DNA of 64,000 bases from Octopus vulgaris. Its lineage: Eukaryota. The notes beneath the pieces were generated by a model, which did no database searches, was not told the origin of the DNA, and worked only from the letters and a program-made list of their open reading frames with translations. Made by a program: the position numbers and the translations under genes. Shown here in pieces: positions 374 through 63,758 of this stretch. The stretch is taken from positions 25,296,001-25,360,000 of the forward strand of contig OX597816.1 in assembly GCA_951406725.2 (NCBI GenBank), in the 5' to 3' direction. Within the stretch, counting starts at the first letter, position 1. Each line of letters begins with the position of its first letter.

Positions 374-484
374 TCAATCCATGCCATAGGAGACCATGTA
401 AGAACGGTGGTTTGTGTATCAGGAAAGGACGTAGTTTCACCTGTAAATGCAGACCTGGTTACTCTGGAAGATACTGTAATATAT
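374..484 (+). CDS. EGF exon 1, (F)[36 protein letters not shown]
   Basis: CACTAG|TCAAT...AATATAT|GTAAGT; 111 bp, phase 1-1, 6-Cys EGF spacing. Confidence 0.9.
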
Positions 485-12400: not shown

Positions 12401-14342
12401 TTTTAAAGAAAAAATTCAGAGCACACATACATATACACACTCACACTCACATACACCACACATACCGAAACATAGCCATACGCATACACATATACATATA
12501 TGTAAGCATAATCGTTATTAACCACGAAAGCTGTATGGCTTCATAATAGCATTCTGCATATATTCCTTAACATGGGCATAACGTATAAGCCACAAAACTG
12601 CAGAATTCCTTCTTGAGGAGGCTTCTCCTCCTAGAGTTGTATAGGGCTAAAAGCGACGGAAGAGTATCAATAGCTGTGGAAACGTCCGAGCAATGTTGGT
12701 AAAATTGCGAAATCCGGATTTTTGCTGGTTTGTCGGTAGATAATTTTGGATAAAATTTTATGCTTTAACTTTCGATGTTATAGCAAATTATTATTTAAAA
12801 AACAAATCCAATAATTTTTCTTACTCAGAGAGATGAAGAGAAAGAAAATAAATATATACAGAGATAAACATTCGTTACAGGATATTCTATCGTTATATCC
12901 ATATGAATATATAGAAGACAGCGAAATAAGACTCATATTTCTTTTATACAGTGATAAATCCATGTCTTAGGAGATCGTTTAAGAACCGCAGGACATGTTT
13001 CAGGAGAGGTCGTAAATTCTTCTGTACATGCAGACCTGGTTACTCCGGAATATGCTGTACTGTATGTAAGTATAATATTAGCAGCCTTGAAGCTGCCAAT
13101 CGGGCGTCTTTCTAGCCAACCTTGCGACGTATAACTTCTGTACTGTAGTGGTCCCGGACACGTTCATTGTGTATGTTTTTTCCTGGTATTAATTATTCGA
13201 GGCTCCATTCCAAACTCCCTACCTACAAAAGTTGCGGGTGTCAGAAATTGAAACTCTTTAGGATACTCACTGGGAGTTCATGGTATGAAATTCATTGTTG
13301 GTACTGCTTGAGAACAGTAGTTCCTGTGCGAGCACTCGCGTACTCGCGCATCCGCGCTAGCTAGTCGTGACTAGTCGATCCTTACTTTGTGTTTTTGTGT
13401 GTTATTTACTTTGTTTGAAAAAATTATTTACTTTGTGTTTTTGTGTTTTTTTTACTTTGTTTAACAATAATTATTTACTTTGTGTAAAAAATTATTTATT
13501 TTGTGTTTTATTTACTTTGCTAGGTAGTCGTTGTAGTACCTTCATTGTTATTGCTCCGATTAGGTCGCCAATAATTTGTATTTAGTTTAGCAGGCAGTAA
13601 AAATAGGGTGTGAGTGGGGACCAAATTTGGCGGCCCTGAAAATTATAGATCCCCTTGGGACATTCATTGGGATTAGGGGAGCTGCTGGTTTTAATTTTGT
13701 TGACCTTGCATCATACTGTTATTTTCTGCTTCTGAAAAGGATGAAAATGAATCTTGTAAAATTATGTAAAATATATTCATTTCATAGCAATAATAAATAT
13801 CTGAACGAGATGTAAACAGTAACTGCACGACAATGTGATTTTTACCTTTTAAATTCAATTTAATTGGAAAATATGAATGAAGGTAGGAATTGAAACCTGC
13901 ATAGGAGACATGAAATTGACTGCTATTATGTAAATAAATTGATTTTTACTTTCCATTTTCTTCATACTATATATATATATATATATCTACAACTTAGCAC
14001 GCCGAACGAAATGCTAAGAGGATTTTCGTCTGTCTTTTCGTTGCACCGAGGTTGACTCTGCTTTTCAACCTTTCGAGGTCAATAAATTAAGTACCAGTTG
14101 CGTACTGGTGTGGATGTAATCGACTAGAACCACTCCCTCAAAATTTCGTGCCTTGTACCTAGACGAGAAAAGTATACATATATATATACAAATATGTATA
14201 TATATATATATATATAAAAAATATTTAAAAATTGAGGGAGATAAATTAATATTAATTTTAATATCAATTTAAAACCAGTAGTCCAGCATTCAAAAAATCT
14301 GAGGAGTCAGAGAAAATTCAAATATATGTGTATATTGGCAAT

Positions 14343-14424
<82 letters not shown>

Positions 14425-14706: not shown

Positions 14707-14777
<71 letters not shown>

Positions 14778-15136: not shown

Positions 15137-15181
<45 letters not shown>

Positions 15182-16153: not shown

Positions 16154-16219
<66 letters not shown>

Positions 16220-20476: not shown

Positions 20477-20557
<81 letters not shown>

Positions 20558-25206: not shown

Positions 25207-25253
<47 letters not shown>

Positions 25254-25697: not shown

Positions 25698-25743
<46 letters not shown>

Positions 25744-38561: not shown

Positions 38562-38592
<31 letters not shown>

Positions 38593-40564: not shown

Positions 40565-40605
<41 letters not shown>

Positions 40606-40838
40606 CACATGCATACATACCTACATACCCACATAATTACATACATACATACATATATACATACATTCATACATACATACATACATACGTACGCACATAC
40701 ATACATACATACATACATACGTACGTAAATACATACATACATAAGTAAAAAGTTTTTCTTAGGCACGTGACTTAGTCTTCTGTTCCTTTTCTTTAATCGG
40801 TTCCATTTTGAAGTTTTATATTTATACACACACGTAGA

Positions 40839-40872
<34 letters not shown>

Positions 40873-42992: not shown

Positions 42993-43035
<43 letters not shown>

Positions 43036-46000: not shown

Positions 46001-49000
46001 TTTCTGTCGAATCATTGAAGGTTTTGCTACAGAATGTGAAAGTGTGGGAATTTTCGTTAATTGGAGAGAAATATCACAATGCCGTAAGATTTACTGATTC
46101 TTTACATTCCTCTAAGAACATGATAAATGGCGCATTACATCTTGATGTGTCCGAGATGAAATTTTGTCGAATTATGTTTTAGTTCTTTTAGAGAACTATG
46201 AAACAATAGTTGCTAAATCCTTCGAATATATATTGTTCGACTGTAGGAATCGAGTTTGGACTTTTAGATAACACTAATTCATAAACTCAAGAAAAAAACT
46301 TTCGATGTCTGATCAGTGAGTATCCGGACTGCTGGTATAGTAACGAAGCCAAAGCAAATATCTGGACCACTCTTACATTTGTGTGCGGTCCGTATACTTT
46401 CTGCAACTTTCCGTCGACCTCGGACCTGGTATCACTATAACAACTTTCTCCGGCATGGTCAATGCGACAATCATATGTTTTCTTACGTCCATTCCGAGAA
46501 CTGCTGTAAACAGCGGAAGTGAGCTAGAACTTTAAAACTTCATGCGCATGCACAACCGAGTCGAAAGTGAATTCTTGCCAGCGGCTTCAGTCTACGTGGT
46601 TTAGCTTCGTTACAATCGGAGCTGTCCGGATACTTATTGATCAGATCTAGTATTTCTGCATGTATATAACGAAGCATAGAATTCTGAAATGCCTCCAAGT
46701 GCATAGTTTAAGAAATTTGCGAATAGATTTCAGCCCTTTGTTAAACAAACCTTACTGAATACGCGACAATTCTTCCTCGATATATTGTAGAGACTTGGTA
46801 GACTTGATTTGTATTTATTAGTATTTAAGTTGAATATTACTTTCGAATTAGATCTATCCCTGTTTCTTGTCTTATACATAAATTTTCAGACAAATATTTG
46901 ATATTTTGATTGATTCTCAAAACATTGCACTGAAGGTTTACATATTATCGTCAGAGTTATTGTGTTCCTCGTAAATATTTTGCTATTTATAAGAAAATAC
47001 CTGTTTGTTATGATTCTCCAATGTATTTTCTTCCAGCAACGAAATGCAAAGAAAATGAAGAGTTCCAATACAAGACTAGCAGCTGTCAACCTTCGTGCGC
47101 TAATAGGTCACCGAATTGCACAGGTTCCAGTCAAGGTTGTGTTTGTAGACAAGGCTTTATTCTGAGTGGTGAACAGTGTGTACCTGAAACAGAATGCGGC
47201 TGTATCGACAACAAGATATATATGAAGGTAAAATATTGTATGAAAACTTGTATACATAAACATACACGCGCGCGGTCACACACACAGACACACACATACA
47301 CAGATAGAAACACATTGGGCTGTATAATAAATACCATTATGCATAAAAGATATAGATAGGTTATTGTTTATTAAATTGATTACTGGACATTTTTGTTGGT
47401 GTTTACTTTCGACCCGATCATCTGGTTACGACGTATACTTCCCTTATATAAAAGCTCTCTGTGTTCTACTAACAGAAATTAAACTAGGAATATCAGTGAT
47501 AGCGTATTCTAATGTATTACCATCCGTGATAAAATAAGGTTTTGAGCTTCAGTCTTAGAAACACCATCAATATTCTACTGGAATATTTTAAAGTTTCATC
47601 AAATGTTCAGTCCATAAATATACACTGGTATAATAAGGTTCTAATTTATTGAATTTTACCTACAGGTTAATGAGGAAATTATATCAGCAGATTGTAAAAC
47701 AAAGAAAATATGTAAACCTGGTAACGAAATCGTAACAGAAGATATCACTCCTTGTGGTGAAAACAGCCACTGCGGAATTGAAAGAGGGAAATATGCCTGT
47801 ATTTGTAACGATAATTTCATTCTTCATAAGGGAAAGTGTGTTCACACTGGTGAGTAAAGATTTTGTAATTATTATTAATGCATTTTCATTGAACTGGTAA
47901 TTCTAGACAAATAATTTGTCTTCAAGTATAATTGTAATATAGGATTATATTACCTCTAATTTTTATGGTTATAGAACGTAGCTGTTCTTTCTAGCGTGTA
48001 GAATTTCTATAAGTGGATTCCTTATGTGTTTAAATATACGCTATATCGTATGACTAATATATAGTCTATTTGACTAAATTTTTTACACGTTAGACCACTG
48101 GAAATGTAAATTTTAATTAATTTCCATTTCCCTTTGTTATGATTAAATATATATATATATATTTACGCACACACGCTAACGCACACACACACACACATAC
48201 CCACATATATATATATACATACATACACTTACACAACAACCTAAGCATTTCCCCGTGTCTTTGTTGCCTGTTCCTATGTCTTTAATCGTTTTCATTTTCC
48301 GTTTTGAAGTTTTGCAAACAGACAAACATTTATATATATATATGCATACACATGCATACACACATACCCACATAAGTACATATATACATACATACATACA
48401 TATATGCCTACATACATACATACATACATACGTACGTACACACATTCATACATACATACACACATACATACATACATACATACATACATACATACATACA
48501 TACGTACGTAAATACATACATACATACACACACACATAGATACATACATGAATACATACATACATACATACATACATACATACATACATACATGCATAGA
48601 TACATACATACATAAATACATACATACATAAGTAAAAAGTTTTTCTTAGGCATGTGACTTAGTCTTCTGTTTTCTTTTCGTTAATCGTTTCCGTATGCCA
48701 TTTTGAAGTTTTATATTTATACACATACATACATTCATACATATCTGCAAATGTCGACATTTTAAAACAAAAAGCGGAATTTTATAACGCCGCCTTGTCA
48801 AAGGCCGGTTATAGGGATAAGGTATCATATATCGATCCGGCCCATGCTAAACTAATATTTACCCATCAAGATAAGATAACTACTAATAATAATATAAATA
48901 ACATAATTAGTGATTTCAGCTCTAGCAACGTCGACACTAATATATTTAAGAAAAATAATTTGCGGACCAGGGGAGGCCATCGTAAACCAAAACCCATTCT

Positions 49001-52000
49001 ACTACACAGAAATACGCCCTTTAATGTAAATGTTAACACTCTGAGCCATTCCAGGAACAAAAAAAAAACTATATCTGGTTTGTGATTCCTTTCGGGAAAC
49101 AAATCAGGTCTAACATCCCTTTACAATTCCGTGAAGCTGTAGCTAAGAATTTTCCTAGGAATTCTAGATATTACTCCAATATAAATTCGCATAAAGTAAG
49201 GATTGCATTCTCAAATACTAAAAATCTATCGCAGATAATAGCCTCCCACAATAATAAGCAGCTAAATAAGGTCTCATCACCCATGAGTAGCGACACCGCC
49301 CTTACCTATTCCAACGTAACATACAATAATAATAATGATAGAAGTAGTATGGATGTTAGCAACATTCATAGCAGCATTGGCGTTAGCAATAGTAATAATG
49401 ATAATAACATTAACCAGATTATTAACAGTGGTGGTGTTAGTGGTAATAGTAACAGCATTCTTAATAACAGTTATATTATTGATGATAGCAATCGCAGCAT
49501 TCCTATAGCCAGGCAATTTGCCGACGATATTACAACTAATAGTAATGATAATAAGATAAATAGTATCATGGCCAAAGCCAGCAACAATTTTTACACCTAT
49601 CACAACAATAAAAACTCTCTCTTAGTATCGGAAACACATACGCAAATATAAAATTTTATTTCAATATCAACAGATGCTTGTCATGGCGGACCTTGCAGAA
49701 ATGGTGCCACATGTCTGAAAGTTGGCAGAGATTTCCAATGTAACTGCGCTCCAGGTTTCCGTGGTAAAACCTGTTCCGAATGTATGTGTACTCTTCTCTT
49801 TACAATTTCGTTACTAAATGTCTTATTGTAAATAAGATAAACAAGTTTTCAGGACAGTAGGATTAGAATAAAAAAGGATAGAAACATTGTGTTTCGCAAA
49901 ACTATTAAAGAAATAGTGCAGTAAAAGAGAAACATGAACCGGCGTAGTTATCAATTTATCATTAACTAAGTTGACTAAGGAAATTGAATTAACAATATGT
50001 CTTATGATTTCTGAAACATCGAAATATATATACTAAATAGTTTATTAAGAAAGCGAGAAGTCATTTATGCATTCACTGATAAAAGCGTAAGTCATAATAT
50101 GATGTGAATAAATATTACATTATTACGTATATATATACAAAATTTAGAGGACTGGTCACTAAAAGTGGACAGCCGATATGCTAGATATAGACAGCATAAT
50201 CGCCATTTTGACGTCTATAGCCCTGAGAAAAGTGAGTAAAAATCTTGAGAAGTACATGGAATAAACGACCGCAATAAATGAGGAGCACTTGCAGAAATCG
50301 GCACTGCTTGGAACTGCTCGAATACTCCGGTTGTCGCTGGAAAAGTAAGAAAGTGAGGTGGATGGTAATGGGTATGAGGTAGATGATGGTGGTGGGGGTA
50401 ACGACGACGATGATGATGATAGACGAATATTTTAAATATACATTTCACGTATGCTGTCATTTCGAAGCATTATTCAGGGGCTTATATTATAATGTTCACA
50501 AGTTTATATAATGAATATTTTCAGCTTCGAAACCATGTATATGTAAAGTGTCTGGTGACCCTCACTACAGAACGTACGATGGACAAATGATACATTTCAT
50601 GGGCACATGCAAATATACACTGGCTACTAATATGGACGGATCGAATAATACCTACTTTTCTGTTGAAGTAAAGAACGAACACCGAGGGAATAACCGTGTA
50701 TCTTACACACGTTTAGTGGATGTCAAACTCACTGGTTTCACAATTCGTCTGTTGCCAGCTAACAAAATCTTGGTACGTACATTTCGTCTCTCTTCACTCT
50801 ATACTTGTGTAAATGTGTAATAACCATCCATAATATTATTTTGCAGGTCGAGTTGTATTTTCGAATGTCACGCTTGTAATAACTGTAACCAAGAAATAAA
50901 TCGAAGATATAATGCAATGAAACAAATTTAAATTGTAGATTTATAATGAAAATTGAATATGGAAGTAAATCAAAGACATAATCGTAGTATTTAACATATG
51001 AAATCAATAACATAATAATGAATATATTTACGTATTAAATTAGATATAAACTCATTCATAGAATGTGGAATTAATCCTCGTTAATACAATATGATTAATG
51101 ACGGATTTTAGCGTTTGCCAAACAAATGAACATAAGAGACCCTCTTCAATTGGTGAGATGCTAACAAACTGTTTTTCAGCGTATCGTATGTAAGCACGTC
51201 ACTAGCTGACATAACGGCTTCTTATTTTCAATAGTCGTCGCTTCCACAAGACACTGTGAGTAATTTATAGATATTTGGCTTTCAGAAGATCTTGATATGT
51301 TATATTTTTTAATGAAAGGAGCGAGGGCTTGTCAATTGCATTATAATCTCCATCCTCTTAAGTATATTCTAAGGTGACCAAATTATAAAGAAAGCCAAAA
51401 GTATTATAGAAGTGATATATTTATTCTGTTCAGATGAGTTTACGTCTACGTAACTTAGCGGTTCGGCAAAAGGTGGACTTACTCTAGTAATCTCTTGAAG
51501 GTGGTGCCCCAGCATGGCCAGAGTCCAATGACTGAAACAAGTAAAATTTTGAAAATAATCCATGATTTATATATAAAGAAAATTACTTGATTTGCATACC
51601 TGTCCTATTTTCTTAAATTTAATTTTCAGATAAATTCCGAAGAGAAATCGTTACCCGTAAGAAATTATAAAGAGTTTTCAACCACATACTCTGTCGGGTG
51701 GATTACAGTTACCACTGAATGGGGTTTGAAGGTGATGTTTGATGGTAGCCACAGAGTCACTGTTACATTACCACCAATATTTGCCGATCAACTGACTGGA
51801 ATCTGTGGAGATTGTAACGGAGAAAAAGATGACTTTCGTACGAAAACTGGTGAAGATGTTTCTCAGAAAGCAAATAAATTTTCTTTAATTGGTGTCAGTT
51901 ATCAAGTTGAAGATGACAGTGATAAACCCGAAACAAAGTAAGTGTTGTTTTAATATCAAGATTTAGCTGTTTTCACGTTAATCTGTAAGCTGGCAGAATA

Positions 52001-55000
52001 TTTGGAGCGTGACAAAAATGAATTGCGGCATTTTCTTGGGCACATAACAATGTGAATTCGGGGTCGATAAAATTACCAGTCAAATAATATGTCGAGGTTA
52101 TCGATTAACCCCTATAAACTAATGGTATGGTGCCAAAATTTGAGAGTATGGTTATTTAAGGAGGTGAGCCTTAAATGATAATAGTTTCAGTTACCGCACA
52201 CATCAAAATGCTTAGAATTATTTCTGTCGGCCCTTTGTGTTCTGCAATGAAACGTCGACGAAACCATCTTTGCTTTTCATCGTTGCAGACTCGATAAAGG
52301 AAGTAGAAATTAAGCTGGAACCGACTTAATGCTCTAAAACCTCAGATTTTGTGCCTGTCGTTTCTGTTTTTATATATAAGGCAAGAAATGAGTTAACAAT
52401 GTTAGATGATTTGGTAACGTTTTAGATGTAGGGAATATTTGACATCTGGAAATAATTAAAGTAAAGAGATTGAATTATAATTGATTAACTCACCAGTAAG
52501 TTTTTACTCAGAAAATACGCATGGTTTCTAGTTAGCAAATGAGAAATCATACATCATAACAATTATTCTTAACTTCATCATTTCGCTTTCTATTTTCATT
52601 TTCAGATGCAAAGTGAATGATGTTAATTCGACTTGTTCAAAGGAAGATACAAACGAATGTGATGTAATGAAGGACAAAATCTTTGAAGCCTGCATTGAAA
52701 AGATCGGAGCTTCGGATCTAGAAGAATACTTGGAGTCTTGTAGAATCGATGTCTGTAGTTATCACAATGATCCTACGAACAGTTACTCTGTTTTCTGTCG
52801 AATCATTGAAGGTTTTGCTACAGAATGCGAAAGTGTGGGAATTTTCGTTAACTGGAGAGAAATATCACAATGCCGTAAGATTTACTGATTCTTTACATTC
52901 CTCTAAGAACAGGATAAATGGCGCATTACATCTTGATGTGTCCGAGATGAAATTTTGTCGAATTATGTTTTAGTTCTGATAGAGATTATAAAATAATAGT
53001 TGCTAAATCCTTCGAATATATATTGTTTGACTGTAGGAATCGAGTTTGGGCTTTTAGATAACACTAATTCATAAACTCAAGGAAAAAAATTTTGATGTCT
53101 GATCAGTGAGTATCCGGACTGTTGCAATAGTAACAAAGCCAAAGCAAATATCTGGACCACTCGTACATTTATGTGCGGTCCGTACACTTTCTGCAACTTT
53201 CCGTCGACCTCTGAGCTGGTATCACTATGACAACTTTCTCTGGCATGGTCAATGCGACAATCATATGTTTCACGCGTCCATTCCGAGAACTGCTGTAAAC
53301 AGAAGAAGTGAGCTAGAACTTTAAAACTTCATGCGCATGCACAACCGAGTCGAAGGTGAATTCTTGCCAAGCGGCTTCAGTCTACGTGGTTTAGCTTCGT
53401 TACAATCGGAGCAGTCCGGATACTTATTGATCAGATCTAGTATTACTGCATGTATATAACGAAGCATAGAATTCTGAAATGCCTCATTCTGAAGTGCATA
53501 GCGTAAGAAATTTGCGTATAGATTTCAGCCCTTTTTTAAACAAACCTTACAGAATACGCGACACAATTCTTCCTCGATATATTGTAGAGACTTGGTAGAC
53601 TTGATTTGTATTTATTAGTATTTAAGTTGATTATTACTTTCGAATTAGATCCATACCTGTTTCTTGTCCTATACATAAATTTTCAGATAAATATTTGATA
53701 CTTTGATTGATTCTCAAAACATTGCACTGAAGGTTTTCATATTATCGACATAGTTATTGTGTTCCTTGTAAATATTTTGCTATTTATAAGAAAATACCTG
53801 TTTGTTATGATTCTCCACTCTATTTTCTTCCAGCGACGAAATGCAAAGAAAATGAAGAGTTCCAATACAAGACTAGCAGCTGCCAACCTTCGTGCGCTGA
53901 TAGAACACCGAATTGCACAGGTTCCAGTCAAGGCTGTGTTTGTAGACAAGGCTTTATTCTGAGTGGTGAACAGTGTGTACCTGAAACAGAATGCGGCTGT
54001 ATCGACAACAAGATATATATGAAGGTAAAATAGTGTATGAAAACTTGTATACATAAACATACACGCGTGCGGTCACACACACAGACACACACATACACAG
54101 ATAGAAATACATTGGGCTGTATAATAAATAGCATTATGCATAAAAGATATAGATAGGTTATTGTTTATTGAATTGATTACTGGACATTTTTGTTGGTGTT
54201 TACTTCCGAACCGATCATCTGGTCACGACGTATACTTCCCTTATATAAAAGCTCTCTGTCTTCTACTAACAGAACTTAAACTAGGAATATCAGTGATAGC
54301 GTATTCTAATGTATTACCATCCGTGATAAAATAAGGTTTTGAGCTTCAGTCTTAGAAACACCATCAATATTCTACTGGAATATTTTAACGTTTCATCAAA
54401 TGTTCAGTCCATAAATATACACTGGTATAATAAGGTTCTAATTTATTGAATTTTACCTACAGGTTAATGAGGAAATTATATCAGCAGATTGTAAAACAAA
54501 GAAAATATGTAAACCTGGTAACGAAATCGTAACAGAAGATATCACTCCTTGTGGTGAAAACAGCCACTGCAGAATTGAAAGAGGGAAATATGCCTGTGTT
54601 TGTAACGAAAATTTCATTCTTCATAAGGGAAAGTGTGTTCACACTGGTGAGTAAAGATTTTGTAATTATTATTAATGCATTTTCATTGAACTGGTAATTT
54701 TAGACAATTAATTTGTTTTCAAGTATAATTGTAATACAGGATTGTATTACCCCTAATTTTTATGGTTATAGAACCTAGCTGTTCTTTCTAGCGTGTAGGA
54801 TTTCTATAAGTGGATTCCTTATATGCTTAAATATACGCTATATCGTATGACTAATATATAGACTTTTTGACTAAATTTTTTACACGTTAGACCACTGGAA
54901 ATGTAAATTTTATTTAATTTCCATTTCCCTTTGACATGATGAAATATATATATATATATATATGTATATACATAATTACGCGCACACACAAACGCACACA

Positions 55001-55008
55001 CACTCACA

Positions 55009-55043
<35 letters not shown>

Positions 55044-57014
55044 CGTACATACACTTACACAACCACCTACGCATATTCATACGTACAGAGATACATGTAT
55101 ATACACTTGCGTCCGAAATTAATTAGCACTTCTCAAATTTCTACATTTTCTTACATTTTCTTAATTTAATTAACTTATTATCAGAAACGAACTCGTTTAT
55201 AATCAAAAATTTATTAAAACATATCCCCGCACACCACATAATTTTTATTAATCGTGAAATTTAGTCAATATCTTGTTGCTCCTCCTTTGGCAGCAATGAC
55301 AGCTGCTACGCGGGTCGGCATGCTGTCTATGAGTGCCTGCAGGTACTGTGCAGGGATGGCCCTCCATGCAGCAAGAAGTGCCCCAAACACCTTGTGTCGG
55401 TTCAGGTCAGGTGACTGGCCAGGCCAGTCCATGACCGTCACCCCATGGTCTTTGAAGAAACCGGTTGTGACCTTGGCTGTGTGGGAAGGCACGTTGTCCT
55501 GCTGGAGCACGTACTCCTCGCCACCAAAGAGGTATCCCGTACTATCTCAACGTACTTTGCTGCGTTGATGTTGCCTTCGACGGCATAGAGCCGCCCAACA
55601 CCACTGTAGCTGAACGCCCCTAACACCATCAGACCACCCCCACCATGCTTCATTGTGAGAGCAATGCAGTCTTTGTTGAAGCGCTCACCCCTGCGGCGTC
55701 GCACATGGACAGGCTTGTCACTGACGAGACTGAATCGCGACTCGTCAGTGACAAGCCTGTCCACCACTGCTGCACGGTCCATGTCTTGTGGGCACGGGCC
55801 CAGAGCAGCCGCCTCTTCCAGTTTTGGGCTGTAAGGAGCGGCTTATGGGCGGCCCTACAGGATTTTAGACCAGCTTCCAGTAATCTGGTCTTGACGGTGG
55901 TTGTGGACAACTGCTTCCCTGTCATCTTTTGCATCTCCTCCGCCAGTTGCCGGCTCGTTGCCCTTCGGTTGTACAGCGACTTTCGGATCAGCATCCGGTC
56001 CTCCCGCTGGGTCGTCAGCCTCTTCCGTCCCCTACCCTTTTTGTCAGCTGCTGATCCGATTTCCTCGTATTTCTTAAATAAGCACTGAATTGTGCGCCTT
56101 GCTACACCAAGTTTTCTGGCTATTGCAGCCTCCGACAGCTTCCCACGCCACGAGAGAGCCTCGTACCGTCTCTCCAAGGTCATGCGAGGTCTTGAGCCAT
56201 CTAGGAATGAACGATAAAAACCAGTTATTTTCATTAAAACTATTCATTTGAATAATGTTATGCTATAACAAAACTGCTATGAGTTATTATTCATTAAACA
56301 AAAAAGAAAGAAAGCAGAATTTCTCACCTTATTTGATGTATAACAGAAAGTTTTGTGAACCAGAAGTGACGTCATCAAGCAGAGTGTAGGAGAATTTGTG
56401 AGGAAAAAAAAATCTTGCAAATACACAAATCAATTAACCTACGAGCTGTTCAAAACGTCTTACGCGATGAGAAAACTTAGTACGGTGTGATTTCGGTCAT
56501 TGCGAGGCGCTACCTATATCTATTAAACAAAGGAAGATTTGTCTGCATCCGCACTCCAAGTTGTTGTTGCACTGCTATGTCAACATCATTAAGCTGTAGA
56601 CTCTCAAACTGCTCTGCAAACAAAGTTACGTCATCGTTCTGCGCAACAGTGAACTCACAACAAAGCAATAGTTCGAGATATGGCCACTAGGTGACAGCAA
56701 ATACCTTGAGTGAAGAGAAAATCAAGGGTGCTAATTAATTTCTGACAGCAGTGTATTCTCTAATGTGTTTCGTTTCCGAAATTATTTATACATTGACGTC
56801 ACATTTGTGCATCACCTTAGTAACATCCCCCGTATTATGGGAGCCTGCAAATGTCCTGCGTCGTGGAAGTTATAGTCTCCGAATTTTAAACGCACCGAAA
56901 TTGCGCGTGCAGTCTTGTCTGCATTGTTGAGGAAAAGATTTCCCCGTGTCTTTGTCTTCGGTTCCTACGTCTTTAATCGTTTTCATTTTCCGTTTTGAAG
57001 TTTTGCACACACAC

Positions 57015-57065
<51 letters not shown>

Positions 57066-57358
57066 CACATGCATACATACCTACATACCCACATAAGTAC
57101 ATACATACATACCCACATAATTACATACATACATACATATATACATACATTCATACATACATACATACATACGTACGCACATACATACATACATACATAC
57201 ATACGTAAATACATACATAGATACATAAGTAAAAAGTTTTTCTTAGGCACGTGACTTAGTCTTCTGTTCCTTTTCTTTAATCGGTTCCATTTTGAAGTTT
57301 TATATTTATACACACACGTAGATACATACATACATACATACATACATACATACATACA

Positions 57359-57392
<34 letters not shown>

Positions 57393-59545
57393 CATACATA
57401 CATGCATACATGCATCCATGCATACATGCATCCATGCATACATGCATCCATGCATACATGCATACATGCATGCATCCATGCATACATGCTTACATACATA
57501 CATACTTACATACATACATACACACATACATACATACATACATAAAACATGCATACATACATACATACAAAATGCATACATAGATATATTTATGTCCATA
57601 TATACAAATACACACTTATATAGACATTCACTCAAATACACACAAGCTCAAATTCTAGCGCACACATACGCAAATATAAAATTTTATTTCAATATCAACA
57701 GATGCTTGTCATGGCCAACCTTGCAGAAATGGTGCCACATGTCTGAAAGTTGGCAGAGATTTCCAATGTATCTGCGCTCCAGGTTTCCGTGGTAAAACCT
57801 GTTCCGAATGTATGTGTACTCTTCTCTTTACAATCTCGTTTCTAAATGTCTTATTGTAACTAAGATAAACATGTTTTCAGGACAGAAGAAATAGAATGAA
57901 AAAGGATAGAAACATTGTGTTTCGTAAAACTATTAAAGAAATCGTGCAATAAAAGAGAAACATGAACCGGCGTAGTTACCAACTTTATCACTAGATAAGT
58001 TGACTAAGGAAAATGAATTATAATATGTCTTATGATTTCTGAAATATCGAAATATATGAGTACTAAATTGTTTATTAAGAAGGCGAGAATTCAAGTATGC
58101 ATTCGCTGATAAGAGCGTGAGTCATAATATGATGTGAATAACTATTACATTATTACGTATATATATATATACAAAACTTAGAGGACTGGCCACTAAAAGC
58201 GGACAGCTTATATGCTAGATATAGACAGCAAAATCGCAATTTTTACGGCTATAGCCCTGGGAAAAGTGAATAAAAATCTTGCGATGTACATGGAGCAAAT
58301 AACGACCGCAATAAATGAGGAACACTTGCAGAAAACAGCATTGCTTGGAACTGCTCGAATACTCCGGATGTCGCTGGAAAAGTAAGAAAGTGAGGTGGAT
58401 GGTAATGGGTATGAGGTAGATGATGGTGGTGGGTGTAACGACGACGATGATGATGATAGACGAATATTCTAAATATACATTTCACATATGTTGTTGTTTT
58501 CGAAGCATTATTCAGGCGCTTATAATATAATGTTTACAAGTTTACATAATGAATATTTTCAGCTTCGAAACCATGTATATGTAAAGTGTCTGGTGACCCT
58601 CACTATGGAACGTTCGATGGACAAATGATACATTTCATGGGCACATGCAAATATACACTGGCTACTACTAAGAACGGATCGAATAATACCTACTTTTCTG
58701 TTGAAGTAAAGAACGAACACCGAGCGAATAACCGTGTATCTTACACACGTTTAGTGGATGTCAAACTCACTGGTTTCACAATTCGTCTGTTGCCAGCTAA
58801 CAAAATCTTGGTACGTATATTTTGTCTCTCTTCACTCTATACTTGTGTAAATGTGTAATAACCACCCATAATATTATTTTGCAGGTTGAGTTGTATTTTC
58901 GAATGTCACGCATTCATGATTAAAAAATCACTGTTACCAAGAAATCAATCGAAGATATAATGCTATGAAACAAATTTAAATTGTAGATTTTGAATAAAAA
59001 TTGAATATGGAAGTAAATCAAAGACGTAATCGTAGTATTTAACATTTGAAATCAATAACGTAATACTGAATATATTTACGTATTAAAATAAGTATAAAAT
59101 CATTAATAAATTGTAGAATTAATCACTGTTAGTAAAATATGATTAATGACGGATTTTAACGTTTGTCAAACAAATGAACATAAGAGACCCTCTTCAATCG
59201 GTGAGATGCTAACAAACTGTTTTTCAGCGTGTCGGATGTAAACTCGTCAGTAGCTGAAAAAAAGGGCTTCTTATTTCCAATTGTTATCACTCCCACAAGA
59301 GTAATTCATAGACATTTGAGTGTTTTACTTTAAAGTTCTCAAAGCCCTTCAAGTGTGATACATGAAAGGATCTATCAACATCTATTACGTAACATCATAA
59401 ACGAAGGGTGTAAACATTAGCGATAGGCATTTTTGTCTTTCAGAAGATGTTGACACGAAGGCGTGTCAATTGCATTATAATTCCTATCCCCTTAAGTATA
59501 TTCAAAGGTGACCAAATTATAAAGAGAGCCAAATGTGTTGTAGCA

Positions 59546-59596
<51 letters not shown>

Positions 59597-62500
59597 TGGT
59601 GAGAGTTGTTTATGTCGACGCTCAGCTAAACGGTTCAGCAAAGACAGCCAATAGGGCAGGTACTAGATAATAAGTAGATGTACGTGGGTGGATTTGCTCC
59701 GGTAAACTTTTCAAGGAGGTGTCCCAGCATAGCTAAAGTCCAATGAGGGAAACAAGTAAAATACTAAAAATAATACATGCATTATATATAAAAAAATAAT
59801 ACTTGATTTGCATACCTGTCCTATTTTCTTGAATTTAATTTTCAGATAAATTCAGAAGAGAAATCGTTACCTGTAAATTATAAAGAGTTTTCAGCCACGT
59901 ACTCTGTCGGGTGGATTACAGTTACCACTAAATGGGGTTTGAAGATCATGTTTGATGGTAGACACAGAGTCACTGTTACATTACCACCAATATTTGCCGA
60001 TCAACTGACTGGAATCTGTGGAGATTGTAACGGAGAAAAAGATGACTTCCGTACAAAATCTGGTGAAGATGTTTCTCAGAAAGCAAATAAATTTTCTTTA
60101 ATTGGTGCCAGTTACCAAGTTGAAGATGACAGTGATAAACCCGAAACAAAGTAATGATTATTTTCTTTCTCAAACTCCAAAATCAAGAATAAAAAATATG
60201 TAAATTGTTGATAGTATTTTAAATGCCACAAGAAATATGTAAAAGTATTATGTTTAAATATGAAGCTTTAGCTGTTTTCACGTTAATCTGTGATTATTCA
60301 CATTATTTACATTGGACGGATATGTGTCCTGATTTTGTTTGTTGTTACCACAACGTTTCCGTAGAAGTTTAAACCTTGGTATCTCGTTACAAAGATATCT
60401 TTTGCTGATGTTGTTGTTGTTATCATTATTAGTATTATTATTCAAATGAATTGAACTCGCAACTTGGAGGTAGTAGCCCTCGCTCTTAACCATTACGCTA
60501 TATGCCCATGGGCAGTTATTGTTGTTGATTATGTGCTACGTATGTCAGTTGATACCATCTCTGGCAAGGGCTTGAAATAAAACCAAGAAGAAGTTCCAGA
60601 CACCCAGCTGAGTACTTGACAGACACAGACTTTGCTGACGACAATGCTCTTATCAGTGATTCTCTCTCCAATGCCCAGTCTCTTTTACAATCTCTTGAAC
60701 AAGCCTCAAATTGTGTAGGTCTTTACCTCAATGAGGCCAAAACTGAATACATAAACAAGTGCCTGTCCAACAGTGATTGCATCATCCATACTCTCAACAA
60801 CGCGCCCTTAAATATGGTCTCTGATTATAAATATCTTGGGTCATACATATCATCATCTGGAAAAGATTTCCAACTATAAAGGGTATGGCCTGGTCAGCCT
60901 GTAATGACATGCATAAGATCTGGTCATCAAATCTAAGTAGAGACTTCAAACTTGAAATATTCAAAGCCACAGTCGAACAAATTCTAATATATGGCTCAGA
61001 AACCTGGACGTTATCAAAGAAGCTTGAGAGGCGGTTGGATGGAACCTACACTCGCCTCCTTATGAGAGCTCAAAATCTCTCGTGGAAGCGCCATCCAACC
61101 AAAATGCAAATATATGGGAAATTACCACCTGTGTCATCTCTTGTGAAAGGTAGGAGAGTCTAGTTTGCTGGACATTGTTGTAGAGCTGAAAAAGAAGTAA
61201 TTTCTACTCTTCTCCTCTGGAAGCCATCTACTCGCAATACCAGAGGGCGCACACTCTCCTACCCTGATGTAATCTCCAGGGATACAGGCATCCAGCAACA
61301 GGACCTCCGTAATGCCATGATGGACCGTGAAGTCTGGCGTAGCATGGTAAATTCCATTGTCTCGACCACGGTCGAACAATGATGATGATGATGAGTTATT
61401 GAGTCAGTTTTAGGGGTTATAAAACTAATATAGAACAGTTAATGAGTGAGCTGGCAGAATGTTTAGAGCGTGGCAAAAATGATTAGCGGCATTCCCTTGG
61501 GTTCCTTATGTTCTGAATTCGGGGTCGATAAAATTACCAGTCAAATACTAGGTCGATGTAATCGATTAGCGCCCCATACCGATAAACGGCTGGTAATATT
61601 TGAAAGTATGGTTATGTAAGGTGGTCAGCCATAAATAAAAATAGTTTCCTTTACGGCACACATCAAAATGTTTAGTATTATTTCTGTCGGCTTTTTGCGC
61701 TCTGCGTTGAAACGTTGACGAAAACATCTTTGATTTTCATCCGTGCAGACTCGATAAAGGAAGTAGAAATTGAGCTGGAACCGACTTACTCCATCCTCTC
61801 AAACCTCAGATTTTGTGTCTGTCGTAGAAAGAATTATTTATGCTTTAACTTTGAAAGTTTTCAGTCAAAGCGGAAGAGATGTGTTACGGAATTTCGGCCG
61901 AGGTCGACTTTGCCTTTCATACTTTCAGGGTCGATACATTAAGTACCAGTTGCATAATGGAGTCGATTTAATCGATTGGCCCCTTGTCCAAATATTTCGG
62001 GCCTTGTACCTAGAGTAGAGAAAGAATTGGATTGTTCTGAACGAGCTGACCTACGATCAAAGAATGCGCGCATGTGTGATTTACATATGGTTTGTATATC
62101 TGTATCTGTTTTTATATATAAGGCAAGAAATGAGTTAACAATTTTAGATGATTTGGTAAGATTTTAGATGTAGGGAATATTTGACATCTGAAATTTTGTT
62201 GTACATCAGACCTTAATTAAAGTAGAGAGATGTGAATCATAATTGATTAACTCCCCAGTAAGTTTTTACTCAGAAAATACGCATGGTTTCTAGTCATACA
62301 TCATAACAATTATTCTTAACTTCATCATTTCGCTTTCTATTTTTATTTTCAGATGCAAAGTGAATGATGTTAATTCGACTTGTTCAAAGGAGCAGACAAA
62401 AGAATGTGATTTCATGAATGACAAAATCTTTGAAGCCTGCATTGAAAAGATCGGAGCTTCGCATCTAGAAGAATACTTGGAGTCTTGTAGAATCGATGTC

Positions 62501-63758
62501 TGTAGTTATCACAATGATCCTACGAACCACCACTCTGTTTTCTGTCGAATCATTGAAGGTTTTGCTACAGAATGCGAAACTGTGGGAATTTTCGTTAATT
62601 GGAGAGAAATATCACAATGCCGTAAGATTTACTGATTGTTTACATTCCTCTAAGAACATGATAAATGGCGCATTACATCTTGATGTATCAGAGATGAAAT
62701 TTTGTCGAATTACATCTCAGTTCTTTGAGAGACTATAAAATAATATTTGGTAAATTCTTCGAATATATTGTTCGACTGTAGGATTCGAATTTGGACTTTT
62801 AGATAACACTAATTCATAAACTCAAGGAAAAACTTTCGATGTCTGATCAGTGAGTATACGGACTATTGCTATAGTAACGAAGCCAAAGCAAATATCTGGA
62901 CCACTCGTACATTTATGTGAAGTCCGTACACATTCTGCAACTTTCCGTCGACCTCTGACCTGGTATCACTATGACAACTTTCTCCGGCATGGTCAATGCG
63001 ACAATCATATGTTACACGCGTCCATTCCGAGAACTGCTGTAAACAGCAGAAGTTAGCTAGAACTTTAAGACTTCATGCGCATGCACAACCGAGTCGAACA
63101 CGTATTCTTGCCAAGCGGCTTCAGTCTACGTGGTTTAGCTTCGTTACAATCGGAGCAGTCCAGATACTTATTGATCAGATCTAGTATTACTGCATGTATA
63201 TAACGAAGCATAGAATTCTGAAATGCCTCCAAGTGCATAGCGTAAGAAATTTGCGAATATATTTAAGCCCTTTTTTAAACAAACCTTACTGAATACGCGA
63301 CAAAATTCTTCCTCGATATATTGTAGAGACTTGGTAGATTTGATTTGTATTTATTAGTATTTAAGTTGATTATTACTTTCGAATTAGATCCATCCCTGTT
63401 TCTTATACATAAATTTTCAGACAAATATTTGATATGTTGATTGATTCTCAAAACATTGCACTGAAGGTTTTCATATTATCGACATAGTTATTGTGTTCCT
63501 TGTAAATATTTTGCTATTTATAAGAAAATACCTGTTTGTTATGATTCTCCATTGTATTTTCTTCCAGCAACGAAATGCAAAGAAAATGAAGAATTCCAAT
63601 ACAAGACTAGCAGCTGCCAACCTTCGTGCGCTAATAGATCACCGAATTGCACAGGTTCCAGTCAAGGTTGTGTTTGTAGACAAGGCTTTATTCTGAGTGG
63701 TGAACAGTGTGTACCTGAAACAGAATGCGGCTGTATGGACAACAAGATATATATGAAG
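374..63758 (+). CDS. Multi-exon gene (partial at both ends): secreted mosaic protein (EGF)n>=12 - VWA - (VWD-C8-TIL-TILa-EGF)n>=5, FCGBP/zonadhesin/mucin-like
   Basis: All exons listed below have AG/GT borders and phase-compatible junctions (EGF 1-1, VWA 1-1, VWD-a 1-0, VWD-b 0-2, C8 2-1, TIL 1-0, TILa 0-1, EGF 1-1). Domain motifs were read by eye. No start or stop codon lies in the window. Confidence 0.88.
1635..1745 (+). CDS. EGF exon 2 (identical to exon 1)
   Basis: Same splice sites and sequence, 111 bp. Confidence 0.9.
2893..3003 (+). CDS. EGF exon 3
   Basis: Same splice sites and sequence, 111 bp. Confidence 0.9.
4153..4263 (+). CDS. EGF exon 4 (variant H5Q, R33S)
   Basis: CAT>CAA and AGA>AGT relative to the other copies; splice sites intact. 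Confidence 0.9.
5413..5523 (+). CDS. EGF exon 5
   Basis: Same splice sites and sequence. Confidence 0.9.
6672..6782 (+). CDS. EGF exon 6
   Basis: Same splice sites and sequence. Confidence 0.9.
7932..8042 (+). CDS. EGF exon 7
   Basis: Same splice sites and sequence. Confidence 0.9.
9191..9301 (+). CDS. EGF exon 8
   Basis: Same splice sites and sequence. Confidence 0.9.
10451..10561 (+). CDS. EGF exon 9
   Basis: Same splice sites and sequence. Confidence 0.9.
11710..11820 (+). CDS. EGF exon 10
   Basis: Same splice sites and sequence. Confidence 0.9.
12952..13065 (+). CDS. Diverged EGF exon 11, (L)[37 protein letters not shown]
   Basis: Acceptor shifted 3 nt upstream (ATACAG|TGATA) and donor GTAAGT; 114 bp, in frame. 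Cys2>Phe and a new Cys before Cys6; may be degenerate or skipped. Confidence 0.55.
13993..14172 (+). mobile_element. tRNA-derived SINE fragment (same family as 17340-17575)
   Basis: TTAGCACGCCGAACGAAATGC...GAGGTCAATAAATTAAGTACCAGTTG shared with the 17340 copy. Confidence 0.7.
14424..14960. mobile_element. Probable Penelope-like element terminal fragments between (TA)n runs
   Basis: 39-bp inverted repeat (14522-14560/14665-14703) and a hammerhead-like motif at 14874-14915 on the minus strand; family assignment is inference. Confidence 0.4.
15008..15181 (+). mobile_element. Degenerate RTE-type LINE 3' end with (GAT)n tail
   Basis: WFDNVKDWT-like remnant followed by ~15 GAT units. Confidence 0.5.
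15365..15475 (+). CDS. EGF exon 12, (F)[36 protein letters not shown]
   Basis: CACTAG|TCGAT...ACAT|GTAAGT; 111 bp, all 6 Cys present. Confidence 0.9.
16499..16696. repeat. Perfect 198-bp palindrome centred on (TA)n
   Basis: ATCGAGAAGTATTATG...CATAATACTTCTCGAT; C16571 pairs with G16624, and the arms match base by base. Confidence 0.93.
16739..17311 (+). CDS. VWA (von Willebrand A / I-domain) exon
   Basis: TTTTAG|TTTCA...AATG|GTAAGT; 573 bp, phase 1-1. [12 protein letters not shown] (DxSxS MIDAS), GGWTHT, VVITDG, IFAIGVG, with flanking Cys pair. Confidence 0.93.
17340..17575 (+). mobile_element. Full-length tRNA-derived SINE with 12-bp TSD GTATTTATATAA
   Basis: GGCGGCGAGCTGGCAGAA head (A-box-like), GAGTTCAAATTCC (B-box-like); TSD at 17328-17339 and 17576-17587; empty site preserved at ~19667-19690. 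Confidence 0.85.
18538..18683 (+). pseudogene. Truncated dead VWD-a exon ([28 protein letters not shown])
   Basis: Own acceptor TTTCTTTCTCCAG; TGC>TGA at 18621-18623. Homology to the VWD-a exons stops at ~18683, where the sequence joins a LINE 3' end; no donor. Confidence 0.8.
18684..18826 (+). mobile_element. 3' end of the R4/Dong-like LINE, copy of 32068-32213
   Basis: CAGCAAACCACAGCACATACCCAAGGCAC...AAGACTACTG(AAT)n matches 32118-32213. Confidence 0.75.
19014..19261 (+). CDS. Module 1 VWD exon a ([14 protein letters not shown]...NKIL)
   Basis: TTTCAG|CT...TTG|GTACGT; 248 bp; SGDPHYxTFDG...[12 protein letters not shown] signature. Confidence 0.88.
19528..19773 (+). pseudogene. Intronic duplicate of the VWA exon 3' end and its downstream intron
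   Basis: Near-identical to 17177-17327 joined to 17588-17685, i.e. without the SINE. Confidence 0.85.
19778..19990 (+). mobile_element. 3' fragment of a CR1/L2/Jockey-type LINE
   Basis: Translates [21 protein letters not shown], a typical LINE C-terminus; absent from the other modules. Confidence 0.5.
21281..21585 (+). CDS. Module 1 VWD exon b
   Basis: TTTCAG|ATA...ACAAA|GTAAG; 305 bp; [18 protein letters not shown]. Confidence 0.88.
22004..22580 (+). mobile_element. Cluster of old tRNA-SINE remnants (paralogs in the same intron of modules 2-5)
   Basis: GAGCTGGCAGAAT, GGGTCGATAAAATTACCAGT and TTGCCTTTCATCCTTTCAGGGTCGATACATTAAGTACCAGTTG resemble the 17340 SINE. Confidence 0.6.
22924..23191 (+). 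CDS. Module 1 C8-domain exon with a 1-bp deletion (frameshift near 23050)
   Basis: 268 bp versus 269 bp in modules 2-5; TACTTGAGTCTT versus TACTTGGAGTCTT. Confidence 0.7.
23410..23757. mobile_element. Tc1/mariner-type MITE (~348 bp); paralogs at 36773-37120, 46303-46650, ~53093-53440 and 62837-63184
   Basis: TIRs TCTGATCAGTGAGTATCCGGA / TCCGGATACTTATTGATCAGA, subterminal GTAACGAAGC / GCTTCGTTAC, TA on the right flank, no coding capacity. Confidence 0.75.
24148..24338 (+). CDS. Module 1 TIL exon
   Basis: TTCCAG|CG...AAG|GTAAAA; 191 bp; [28 protein letters not shown]. Confidence 0.87.
24729..24912 (+). CDS. Module 1 TILa/EGF-like exon ([16 protein letters not shown]...CGENSHC...CVC...KCVHT)
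   Basis: CTGCAG|GTT...ACTG|GTGAGT; 184 bp. Missed by the ORF track. Confidence 0.85.
25640..25960. repeat. Compound (CA)n/(TA)n/(CATA)n microsatellites (also 14342-14422, 16155-16345, 17771-17960, 20461-20561, 40556-41030, 48330-48630, 57005-57585)
   Basis: Direct reading of the sequence. Confidence 0.95.
26051..26158 (+). CDS. Module 1 EGF exon ([36 protein letters not shown])
   Basis: CAACAG|AT...GAAT|GTATGT; 108 bp, phase 1-1. Confidence 0.87.
28575..30479 (-). CDS. 634-aa ORF of the LTR element with remnant pol motifs and no RT catalytic core
   Basis: [24 protein letters not shown] resembles SPW..RFCVDYR.LN; [24 protein letters not shown] resembles WP.P.T.KELRSFLG...YYRR. No YxDD, RNase H or integrase is recognisable. 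Confidence 0.6.
   Translation of the reverse strand: MDLSGCQTEDGEISLALTVKMLRGQMAQTDAFMERMDKRRQGLWADQRELEVADGSALEDRCWTGDSDGLVGRDCPSNEASSETDSEGSVEEPGLVAEICDAVPKKSCDLEPVEVEVTKRPVEGVMADAVVPCLEPLASRPLSLGARDEELARSGADVAESGVPALCVMVAAGVVQCAGPLVSGPLSLGAQNDCMVPTVERPQAWMEWRPSVRVVRPSVQRLERKRTRPVDEARRLRTVVGPPRPGRLLQRWVSFVVDGCLGPVEPDRQCIVKARLRVGWTLVEAEAGGALAGSADLLEVAQAICGRQIEESCLMANQWWGQSCRYGNAVEGVGGPLMQLRKRSARSRWCLIGTWVSSVFDGCVGPVEPDRQCGARAQLRGGWTLVEAEADRALVGSADLLKAAQAICRGQIVELRRTVNQRRGQFCRCSDAVKGDRGPLMQLRKKQPLVRSAGRWSRRLSDVGRANLAECFVGQGGRRLRKQRGRRKVTVQQRKRRYRRRGTVEKRNGPWSSAIIARNEGGTARCYVGYRALRKVATVKNWPDPACVRDLRNFLGRCAYCRRLVGSLAALAEVLPKPQREGVNLWLVLKWWPWEVRPPEEKPPKGTSSSWNVCWSSPSEVRVCYAFVGSTKLR
30516..30533 (-). 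promoter_or_regulatory. Primer-binding site complementary to the tRNA-Leu 3' end
   Basis: Minus strand TGGTGTCAGAAGTGGGAT, 2 nt from the 5' LTR; complement of ...AUCCCACUUCUGACACCA. Confidence 0.88.
32411..32658 (+). CDS. Module 2 VWD exon a
   Basis: Paralog of 19014-19261, 248 bp, GDPH intact. Confidence 0.88.
33396..34778 (+). mobile_element. 5'-truncated RTE-clade LINE with an open RT ORF and (TGA)n tail
   Basis: [50 protein letters not shown]; empty site GTGATATATA at ~42994 in module 3. Confidence 0.92.
34928..35232 (+). CDS. Module 2 VWD exon b
   Basis: 305 bp, AG/GT intact. Confidence 0.88.
36287..36555 (+). CDS. Module 2 C8 exon
   Basis: 269 bp, open: [10 protein letters not shown]...[12 protein letters not shown]...WREISQC. 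Confidence 0.88.
37385..37575 (+). CDS. Module 2 TIL exon
   Basis: 191 bp, AG/GT intact. Confidence 0.88.
38014..38197 (+). CDS. Module 2 TILa/EGF-like exon
   Basis: 184 bp, AG/GT intact. Confidence 0.85.
38653..40303 (-). mobile_element. Tc1 transposon with a frameshifted transposase
   Basis: TA flanks; TIRs CACT..GTCGGAAATTAATTAG / CTAATTAATTTCTGAC..AGTG; HTH, GRKR, TDESRF, QQDN and SPDLN motifs; empty site at ~25370. Confidence 0.92.
41148..41255 (+). CDS. Module 2 EGF exon
   Basis: 108 bp, AG/GT intact. Confidence 0.87.
41735..41831 (+). mobile_element. Short old R4/Dong-like LINE C-terminal remnant (also ~50255-50349 and ~58290-58385)
   Basis: Translates [21 protein letters not shown]. 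Confidence 0.55.
42009..42256 (+). CDS. Module 3 VWD exon a
   Basis: 248 bp, GDPH intact. Confidence 0.88.
43285..43589 (+). CDS. Module 3 VWD exon b (G>C substitution: MFDCRH)
   Basis: 305 bp, AG/GT intact. Confidence 0.88.
43961..44832 (+). mobile_element. Shorter 5'-truncated RTE LINE copy with TSD AGTTATTG
   Basis: Matches ~33905-34778; TSD at 43953-43960 and 44833-44840; frameshifts present; empty site at ~21954. Confidence 0.92.
45815..46083 (+). CDS. Module 3 C8 exon
   Basis: 269 bp, open. Confidence 0.88.
47037..47227 (+). CDS. Module 3 TIL exon
   Basis: 191 bp. Confidence 0.88.
47666..47849 (+). CDS. Module 3 TILa/EGF-like exon
   Basis: 184 bp. Confidence 0.85.
48748..49633 (+). 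mobile_element. Penelope-like element fragment (RT thumb/linker region)
   Basis: [49 protein letters not shown] motifs with Asn-rich spacers; unique to module 3. Confidence 0.7.
49674..49781 (+). CDS. Module 3 EGF exon
   Basis: 108 bp. Confidence 0.85.
50525..50772 (+). CDS. Module 4 VWD exon a
   Basis: 248 bp, [11 protein letters not shown]. Confidence 0.88.
51630..51937 (+). CDS. Module 4 VWD exon b (in-frame +3 nt, LPVRNY)
   Basis: 308 bp, frame preserved. Confidence 0.88.
52606..52874 (+). CDS. Module 4 C8 exon
   Basis: 269 bp, open. Confidence 0.88.
53834..54024 (+). CDS. Module 4 TIL exon
   Basis: 191 bp. Confidence 0.88.
54463..54646 (+). CDS. Module 4 TILa/EGF-like exon
   Basis: 184 bp. 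Confidence 0.85.
55104..56753 (-). mobile_element. Tc1 copy 2 at the paralogous site in module 4
   Basis: Nearly identical to 38653-40303 with the same lesions. Confidence 0.92.
57702..57809 (+). CDS. Module 4 EGF exon (DACHGQPC...)
   Basis: 108 bp. Confidence 0.87.
58563..58810 (+). CDS. Module 5 VWD exon a
   Basis: 248 bp, GDPH intact. Confidence 0.88.
59846..60150 (+). CDS. Module 5 VWD exon b
   Basis: 305 bp. Confidence 0.88.
60522..61393 (+). mobile_element. RTE copy at the paralogous site in module 5
   Basis: Same truncation point and TSD as 43961-44832; extra stop (CAG>TAG at ~61161). Confidence 0.92.
62353..62621 (+). CDS. Module 5 C8 exon
   Basis: 269 bp, open. Confidence 0.88.
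63568..63758 (+). CDS. Module 5 TIL exon (module continues past the window)
   Basis: 191 bp. Confidence 0.88.

Follow-up and report, generated by a model that had tools for sequence, protein, structure and literature searches.

A large octopus gene with two tandem exon arrays encodes a candidate charge-based cross-linker of skin mucus

A stretch of 64,000 nucleotides of Octopus vulgaris contig OX597816.1 (the window, to which all positions refer) carries a plus-strand gene in which an array of strongly cationic EGF exons, a single VWA exon and an array of VWD-containing D modules follow one another. The module exons are spliced, and module peptides place the product in skin mucus in the accessible part of a published peptide table. 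On balance, we favour the view that this product is a secreted cross-linker of the mucus gel that would act non-covalently, through charge.

Exon mapping by blastn on the raw sequence placed 41 exons on the plus strand, every one with an AG acceptor, a GT donor and a compatible phase. Their coding total is 8,143 nt, corresponding to about 2,714 aa in the window, in agreement with the original prediction of phase-compatible exons giving about 2,700 aa. The product consists, in order, of ten near-identical cationic EGFs, a degenerate EGF, a divergent EGF, a VWA with a MIDAS and the D modules. On single exons, Pfam scored EGF, VWA (E 2e-43), VWD (both halves), C8 and TIL above cut-off. The array of ten 111-nt EGF exons of phase 1-1 (374..11820, starting at 374, 1635, 2893, 4153, 5413, 6672, 7932, 9191, 10451 and 11710) has a tandem unit of about 1,260 bp including the intron and is open at its 5' end. 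EGF exon 11 (12952..13065, 114 nt, net +10), which is present in both models from O. sinensis as well, is degenerate: its second Cys is changed to Phe, and the acceptor AG used lies 3 nt upstream. EGF exon 12 (15365..15475) is divergent, with a net charge of +5 and an O-fucose consensus. Twelve EGF exons thus precede the VWA, as predicted, although only 11 of the units are canonical.

The VWA domain is encoded by one exon (16739..17311, 573 nt, phase 1-1) with a complete set of MIDAS residues (DDSGS, T and D), matching the claim of a single MIDAS-bearing VWA. The joins from EGF 12 to VWA and from VWA to VWD are drawn from phase compatibility and predicted RefSeq models only, and none of the four proteins retrieved was a shorter, transcript-derived one bridging EGF, VWA and VWD. 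Downstream of the VWA exon lie two plus-strand relics with approximate ends, namely the 5' half of a VWD exon with GDPH and an in-frame stop (18538..18690) and the 3' end of a VWA exon within the first VWD intron (19529..19663); they are read as what remains of an abortive duplication spanning the VWA/VWD junction.

Each complete D module is encoded by six exons (248 + 305 + 269 + 191 + 184 + 108 = 1,305 nt, or 435 aa). In module 1 (19014..26158) these are 19014-19261, 21281-21585 (VWD), 22924-23191 (C8, 1 nt short), 24148-24338 (TIL), 24729-24912 (E and EGF-like) and 26051-26158 (EGF). The exons of module 2 (32411..41255) are 32411-32658, 34928-35232, 36287-36555, 37385-37575, 38014-38197 and 41148-41255; those of module 3 (42009..49781) are 42009-42256, 43285-43589, 45815-46083, 47037-47227, 47666-47849 and 49674-49781; and those of module 4 (50525..57809, 436 aa) are 50525-50772, 51630-51937, 52606-52874, 53834-54024, 54463-54646 and 57702-57809. 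Module 5 (58563..63758), with exons 58563-58810, 59846-60150, 62353-62621 and 63568-63758, is cut after the TIL exon by the window end, and of the at least five modules of 435 aa that had been predicted, four are complete (435, 435, 435 and 436 aa) whereas the fifth amounts to only 337 aa. GDPH, another predicted feature, and the tethering Cys are both found in five of five modules, and all four complete modules have 36 Cys. A 37th Cys in the module 3 VWD (43285-43589) is probably unpaired; it may serve as a disulfide handle, or reflect a variant or an error of the assembly. The module content is GDPH-VWD-C8-TIL-E-EGF-like-EGF, which retains the TIL and EGF of the predicted TIL-TILa-EGF tail but not the TILa: Pfam TILa did not match the exon given that name, which instead comprises an E-type segment and a 5-Cys EGF-like unit with a Pfam score below cut-off, so that every module has two EGF-like units and not one.

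The two arrays differ in their degree of homogeneity. EGF units 1-9 differ by 0.2-1.6%, introns included, and unit 10 by 4.4-5.1%; just two exon columns vary among units 1-9, both in unit 4, and one block of changes is private to unit 2. The ten copies in the window are of one type (the upstream array lies beyond it), in contrast to the mixed higher-order EGF repeat of O. sinensis. The modules are 93-98% identical in protein. Introns of modules 2 and 4, and likewise of 3 and 5, are 95-99% identical and have Tc1 and LINE insertions in common, pointing to a two-module, higher-order duplication of 16.5 kb (37168..64000, offset about 16.5 kb). Since both cassettes are of phase 1-1, a gain of copies keeps the reading frame, and the duplication pattern suggests growth by unequal crossing-over. 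Changes among modules comprise 49 non-synonymous and 20 synonymous ones (pN/pS 0.36-1.00, pooled 0.63, p = 0.10), so that purifying selection among modules is not demonstrated.

Several transposable elements occupy the module region. In the intron between modules 1 and 2, an LTR element (27438-31702) with TG...CA ends and a 4-bp target-site duplication has two LTRs about 3.1 kb apart that are 95-99% alike; its 666-codon minus-strand frame had no Pfam match, and the element is therefore probably non-autonomous. A LINE in a module 2 intron (33260-34778) retains an intact 502-codon reverse transcriptase frame (RVT_1), and 97%-identical 5'-truncated LINE copies lie at the same intronic position of modules 3 and 5 (43957-44831 and 60518-61392). 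The same intron of modules 2 and 4 contains a broken Tc1-type transposase (about 38800-39800 and 55250-56250). Intronic fragments at 26831-27430 and 48663-49651 resemble other non-LTR elements, and the one scanned gave no Pfam match.

The VWA exon matches O. sinensis XP_036355134.1 with 100% identity and O. vulgaris CAI9719089.1 with 99%, in line with the suspected cephalopod origin. Because the latter model reads through the same frameshift in module 1, the window is very likely its locus. CAI9719089.1 passes from a signal peptide straight to the VWA, has none of the 12 EGF exons and none of the GDPH-bearing exons, and stops at module 3; automated annotation has thus, as foreseen, dropped the EGF array and fragmented the gene. 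Two O. sinensis models contain a signal peptide, a WSC domain, 7 or 11 EGFs (including the degenerate one), a VWA and one D assembly, and both have GDLH, not GDPH, in the first module. The orthologue WSC was recognized by Pfam (E 2e-10), and the N-terminus is signal-like. The first exon of another O. sinensis protein, P0247, is the same E/EGF-like one (52-53 of 61 aa identical); an EGF, a divergent D and PAN follow, and the protein is likely to be the 3' end of the gene, D-PAN-PAN with a non-GDPH terminal D. Extrapolated from the O. sinensis models, the full order is likely SP-WSC-(cationic EGF)n-VWA-(GDPH D-EGF-EGF)n-D-PAN-PAN; tblastn found neither WSC nor PAN within the window.

The EGF exons (374-484 and its copies) have a second stop-free frame, and the deposited paralogue models P0022, P0023 and P0028 translate EGF arrays in it, at the N-termini of P0022 and P0028. 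This frame was rejected as a real product, as it has no Pfam support in the models using it and is out of phase with the VWA. An interpretation of the EGF array as a satellite was dismissed on account of its canonical splice sites, Pfam EGF matches and orthologues, and the labels Notch, mua-3 and matrilin were set aside as automatic names for proteins with a different domain order. Omitted exons and wrong-frame EGF arrays in deposited models mean that proteomic searches under-report the family, and the locus exposes a systematic annotation error in which array and GDPH exons are skipped and paralogue arrays are misframed.

Splicing was assessed over 20570-25200 in contigs of four of 21 candidate runs; of these four, three were guessed to be RNA (RNA-like) and one was DNA-like. 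The contigs with module-exon splicing come from three studies, and none of the 21 runs is recorded as RNA. The joint 21585>22924, with a GT..AG intron and ends as predicted, was observed in three of three RNA-like runs, as was 24338>24729, and the joint 23191>24148 in one of the three; the DNA-like run had no splice joints in this interval. The same contigs bear on a frameshift in the assembly which the original prediction did not mention: the C8 exon of module 1 has 268 nt versus 269 in the other modules, the shortfall lying at 23047..23050 on the plus strand. The missing base is likely an assembly error. Contigs from all four runs have an extra base at 23049, but they carry letters typical of other modules, and module 1 itself is therefore not cleared. 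The other 40 exons are stop-free.

Peptide evidence was sought in 3,654 of the 5,937 rows of the O. vulgaris skin-mucus PSM table of PMC10138644. These rows contain three module peptides (3 PSMs), in keeping with the suggestion of a mucus component: one of 11 residues matching modules 1-4, one of 20 residues matching modules 1, 2, 3 and 5, and one of 19 residues matching modules 3 and 4 exactly. Two of the three are common to 5-6 database entries. One transcript ORF in the part of the table covered has a length of exactly 435 aa, as would be expected if a module had been collapsed. A search of the 3,654 rows for six motifs, taken from the EGF array, the VWA, GDPH and the spacer EGF, gave no match; the EGF tryptic peptides are mostly very short, which bears on their absence. 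A paralogue, LOC115209496, accounts for eight PSM rows of the same part. With only 3 PSMs in 3,654 rows, the product is a minor mucus component and could represent carry-over from scraped skin. According to the accessible text, the mucus was sampled by scraping arms, and much collagen was reported (PMC10138644).

The charge of the EGF array is extreme, with 105 K/R versus 1 D/E in the 444 aa of the twelve EGFs. Each array EGF has 36 aa, a net charge of +8 or +9, three disulfides, a pI of about 10 and 2 Tyr, and no calcium-binding or O-glycan consensus was found in the ten array units. Of 1,651 non-octopod EGFs (64 proteins), 34 had a net charge of at least +6, all in one Haliotis VWA-EGF protein. 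This protein (P0043, Haliotis rufescens XP_048237149.1), with the order VWA x7 - EGF x34 - VWA and a net charge of +15 for each EGF, is the sole non-octopod cationic EGF array among the matches. The charge of the head, taken as the part before the first D, was compared in 27 hand-picked proteins, two of which were dropped for want of an anchor motif. It was at least +9 per 100 aa in 17 of 20 molluscan rows and between -6 and +4.6 per 100 aa in five non-molluscan controls, figures that are a lead only since the rows are kin and not an unbiased sample. The molluscan exceptions without a cationic head are P0245, P0246 and P0103, one of which is the paralogue with more mucus PSMs. The scaffold carrying the charge differs: it consists of EGFs in this gene and of VWA in other octopus paralogues, of WSC in Saccostrea, and of Lys-rich repeats in both Mytilus and Ylistrum. 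The comparison gives a lead that molluscan relatives may have built polycationic N-terminal heads from unrelated scaffolds. A far-reaching and quite tentative extension is that molluscs might have a class of mucus proteins defined by physics and not by domain, a polycationic head rebuilt from EGF, VWA, WSC or Lys-rich repeats on a self-cleaving D rod, with head charge and rod length tuned in octopus by two independent exon arrays of variable copy number. If true, this would provide heritable control over how stiff or sticky the mucus is, or how it traps microbes, and annotation has kept it hidden.

In the proposed cross-linker, the cationic EGF head would bind polyanionic mucus glycans and surfaces, and the VWA, through its MIDAS, would contribute metal-dependent binding of proteins. 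The D assemblies would each cleave themselves at GDPH yet stay disulfide-tethered, as in FCGBP, and together would form a long, near-neutral spacer rod, with WSC and PAN at the ends binding glycans or partners. Unequal crossing-over of the phase 1-1 cassettes would add EGFs or modules in frame. In FCGBP, all GDPH sites are cleaved and the products remain disulfide-linked, without covalent cross-linking to MUC2 (PMC8267560, accessible sections), and the protein dimerises via its last VWD, as stated in the accessible part of PMC11796319. Cleavage requires the Asp and the His and is helped by Gln4094, according to the portion of PMC10880436 available. The modules keep the Asp, the His and the tethering Cys, and have Met at the Gln4094 position, as do some mouse FCGBP domains and 98 of 228 GDPH VWDs. 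VWA/VWF-type proteins also occur in mollusc mucus (PMC10475054 and PMC11431876, accessible sections). The gene would thereby offer a testable candidate for the organisation of cephalopod skin mucus without a PTS mucin backbone, and a natural folded polycationic protein polymer of relevance to wet adhesives and antimicrobial coatings.

Other roles were weighed against this one. The protein might be a mucosal innate-defence trap, in which WSC sees microbial glucans, the cationic, disulfide-stapled EGFs bind or damage bacteria and the D rod anchors the assembly in mucus. We regard this as unlikely, though worth keeping in mind: the EGF (36 aa, net +9, three disulfides, pI about 10), the WSC of the orthologue, the occurrence in the skin-mucus rows covered and the bivalve relatives with lectin domains at the same end all speak for it, but the repeats are homogenised and not diversified, with two variable exon columns in nine units. 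Such a trap and an electrostatic cross-linker are not mutually exclusive. A function in a wet adhesive or cohesive matrix (sucker lining or egg-string cement), like that of mussel mfp-2, scallop sbp9 and sea star Sfp1, is improbable. Tandem EGFs, VWA and cleaved, disulfide-linked multidomain proteins do recur in marine adhesives, as far as the accessible part of PMC12817120 goes, and the mucus was scraped from arms; there are, however, only 2 Tyr per EGF, and in the accessible text of PMC10336842 the egg tether of O. bimaculoides is at least 80% octovafibrin, a protein of another architecture (CTL-EGF29-CTL), which also leaves the egg-coat role once suggested for this gene without support.

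The product could alternatively be an epidermal structural matrix or cuticle protein (matrilin- or tectorin-like) that scraping alone brought into the mucus samples. VWA and EGF together are a combination found in matrix proteins, the top VWA-exon matches are collagen VI-like, and the PSM count is low in a mucus proteome described as rich in collagen; yet the D assemblies are closest to FCGBP, itself a mucus protein, and the paralogue appears in the covered rows of the mucus table as well, and we hold a purely structural role to be quite improbable. Very little credence, finally, attaches to the idea that the long product is not made, the locus being a duplicate in decay, cut short by the frameshift of module 1, or the arrays being over-expansions of the assembly. 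The 1-nt shortfall, the relic exons, the degenerate EGF 11, the several transposon insertions and the weak selection signal would fit decay. Against it stand the stop-free state of the other 40 exons, the 36 Cys of the four complete modules, the spliced contigs and the peptide specific to modules 3 and 4 in the table rows covered, and units whose differences fall in patterned blocks and whose nested insertions are shared, the picture expected of real duplications.

The proposed electrostatic cross-linker has likenesses to several known systems. A phmmer search with the orthologue P0011 returned 2,450 matches at E 1e-30, of which the 150 listed were analysed with home-made HMMs; 20 proteins were named from this set, and a word search added 36. 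FCGBP is the nearest in kind, with tandem VWD-C8-TIL-E units bearing GDPH and tethering Cys, no PTS domain and a location in mucus, and it was the best PDB match by sequence (8rde, residues 5-387 of a 401-aa query). It differs in having FCGBP_N where a cationic EGF array, a VWA, EGF spacers and, in the orthologue, a WSC are present here. The AlphaFold model of P0011 is weak (pLDDT 59, pTM 0.39, residues 1-116 below 50) and its fold search again gave VWF, FCGBP and mucin matches at a TM of about 0.2, results that carry little weight. FCGBP_N marks FCGBP, MAM marks zonadhesin and PTS marks mucins, in the accessible part of PMC4948705. FCGBP_N (PF17517) had no match on the orthologues P0011 and P0026, while the control P0047 matched at E 1e-64, and together with the separate molluscan clade of the VWDs this led us to reject membership of FCGBP. 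Zonadhesin was likewise excluded, MAM domains having no match on P0011 or P0026. Zonadhesin also has a C-terminal transmembrane anchor. Gel-forming mucins share the D assemblies but have a PTS domain, a C-terminal cystine knot and three N-terminal D units. No PTS domain was found in the sequence covered (P+T+S 18-20% in modules, at most 25% per 100 aa in P0026), at least five D units follow EGF-VWA, and P0247, the likely 3' end, has PAN and no knot; the differing D count and order complete the grounds on which a gel-forming mucin was rejected. Von Willebrand factor has the order D1-D2-D'D3 followed by three VWA domains. D assemblies and VWA occur in both proteins, but the octopus gene has a single VWA upstream of all D units, which excludes it from von Willebrand factor, and at least five near-identical D units set it apart from that protein and from gel-forming mucins alike.

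Octovafibrin, as described in the accessible part of its report, resembles the product in that it is secreted in octopus and has many consecutive EGFs that do not bind calcium, and differs in having no VWA or VWD and many D/N residues, the EGFs here having virtually no acidic residues; it was rejected because the EGF array is flanked here by WSC (in the orthologue) and VWA, not by C-type lectin domains. Among the adhesive proteins, mfp-2 is cationic and DOPA-bearing, and Sfp1 has VWD domains. These two and sbp9 are tandem EGF cohesion proteins, of which Sfp1 undergoes cleavage to subunits joined by disulfides and has been put forward as a scaffold (PMC12817120, accessible sections). Compared by that description, their domain orders differ from that of the octopus gene.

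The original prediction had held an EGF spacer after every D assembly and the order EGF-VWA-D to be unrecognised elsewhere, which does not stand. Among the proteins examined, D arrays with EGF spacers are found in Ylistrum, Mytilus, Magallana (14 D units), Liolophura, Lingula, Glandiceps, Styela and Branchiostoma, so that the architecture class is not new. The spacer has 13 Cys both here and in the scallop Ylistrum; EGF-type spacers in chiton, mussel and oyster include those of Liolophura (7 Cys) and Magallana (10 Cys), and a Lingula protein has the order EGF-VWA-EGF2-(D)n. Mytilus, Saccostrea and Tegillarca have a WSC ahead of the first D. In at least six octopod paralogues (P0063, P0235, P0236, P0245-P0248, P0254), VWA, EGF and D units occur in varying combinations in front of a PAN end, and tandem cationic VWAs are present in some. 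A midpoint-rooted VWD tree (64 rows, at most four domains per protein from 26 chosen proteins plus three window modules) nests the window VWDs in an octopod clade (99/92) within a molluscan clade (99/90) within a mollusc plus Lingula clade (99/98), apart from the FCGBP-like rows (of which only P0047 is Pfam-confirmed) and zonadhesin rows. No account of this gene, its accessions or its architecture, and no functional study of the molluscan EGF-spaced D family, turned up in searches of open-licence PMC papers and bioRxiv. The closest known systems are molluscan proteins labelled, automatically, 'zonadhesin-like' or 'IgGFc-binding-protein-like' (Mytilus, Ylistrum, Magallana, Saccostrea, Pinctada, Liolophura), which have the VWD clade, EGF-type spacers and a cationic N-terminal part in common with it, and the octopod paralogues, which share the VWD clade and end in PAN domains. 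Of the proteins examined, this gene and its O. sinensis orthologues alone bring together WSC, an array of cationic EGFs, a single VWA and a homogenised array of several modules; judged by its sequence, the gene belongs to a wider molluscan family, as a poorly annotated variant and not as a new kind of protein.
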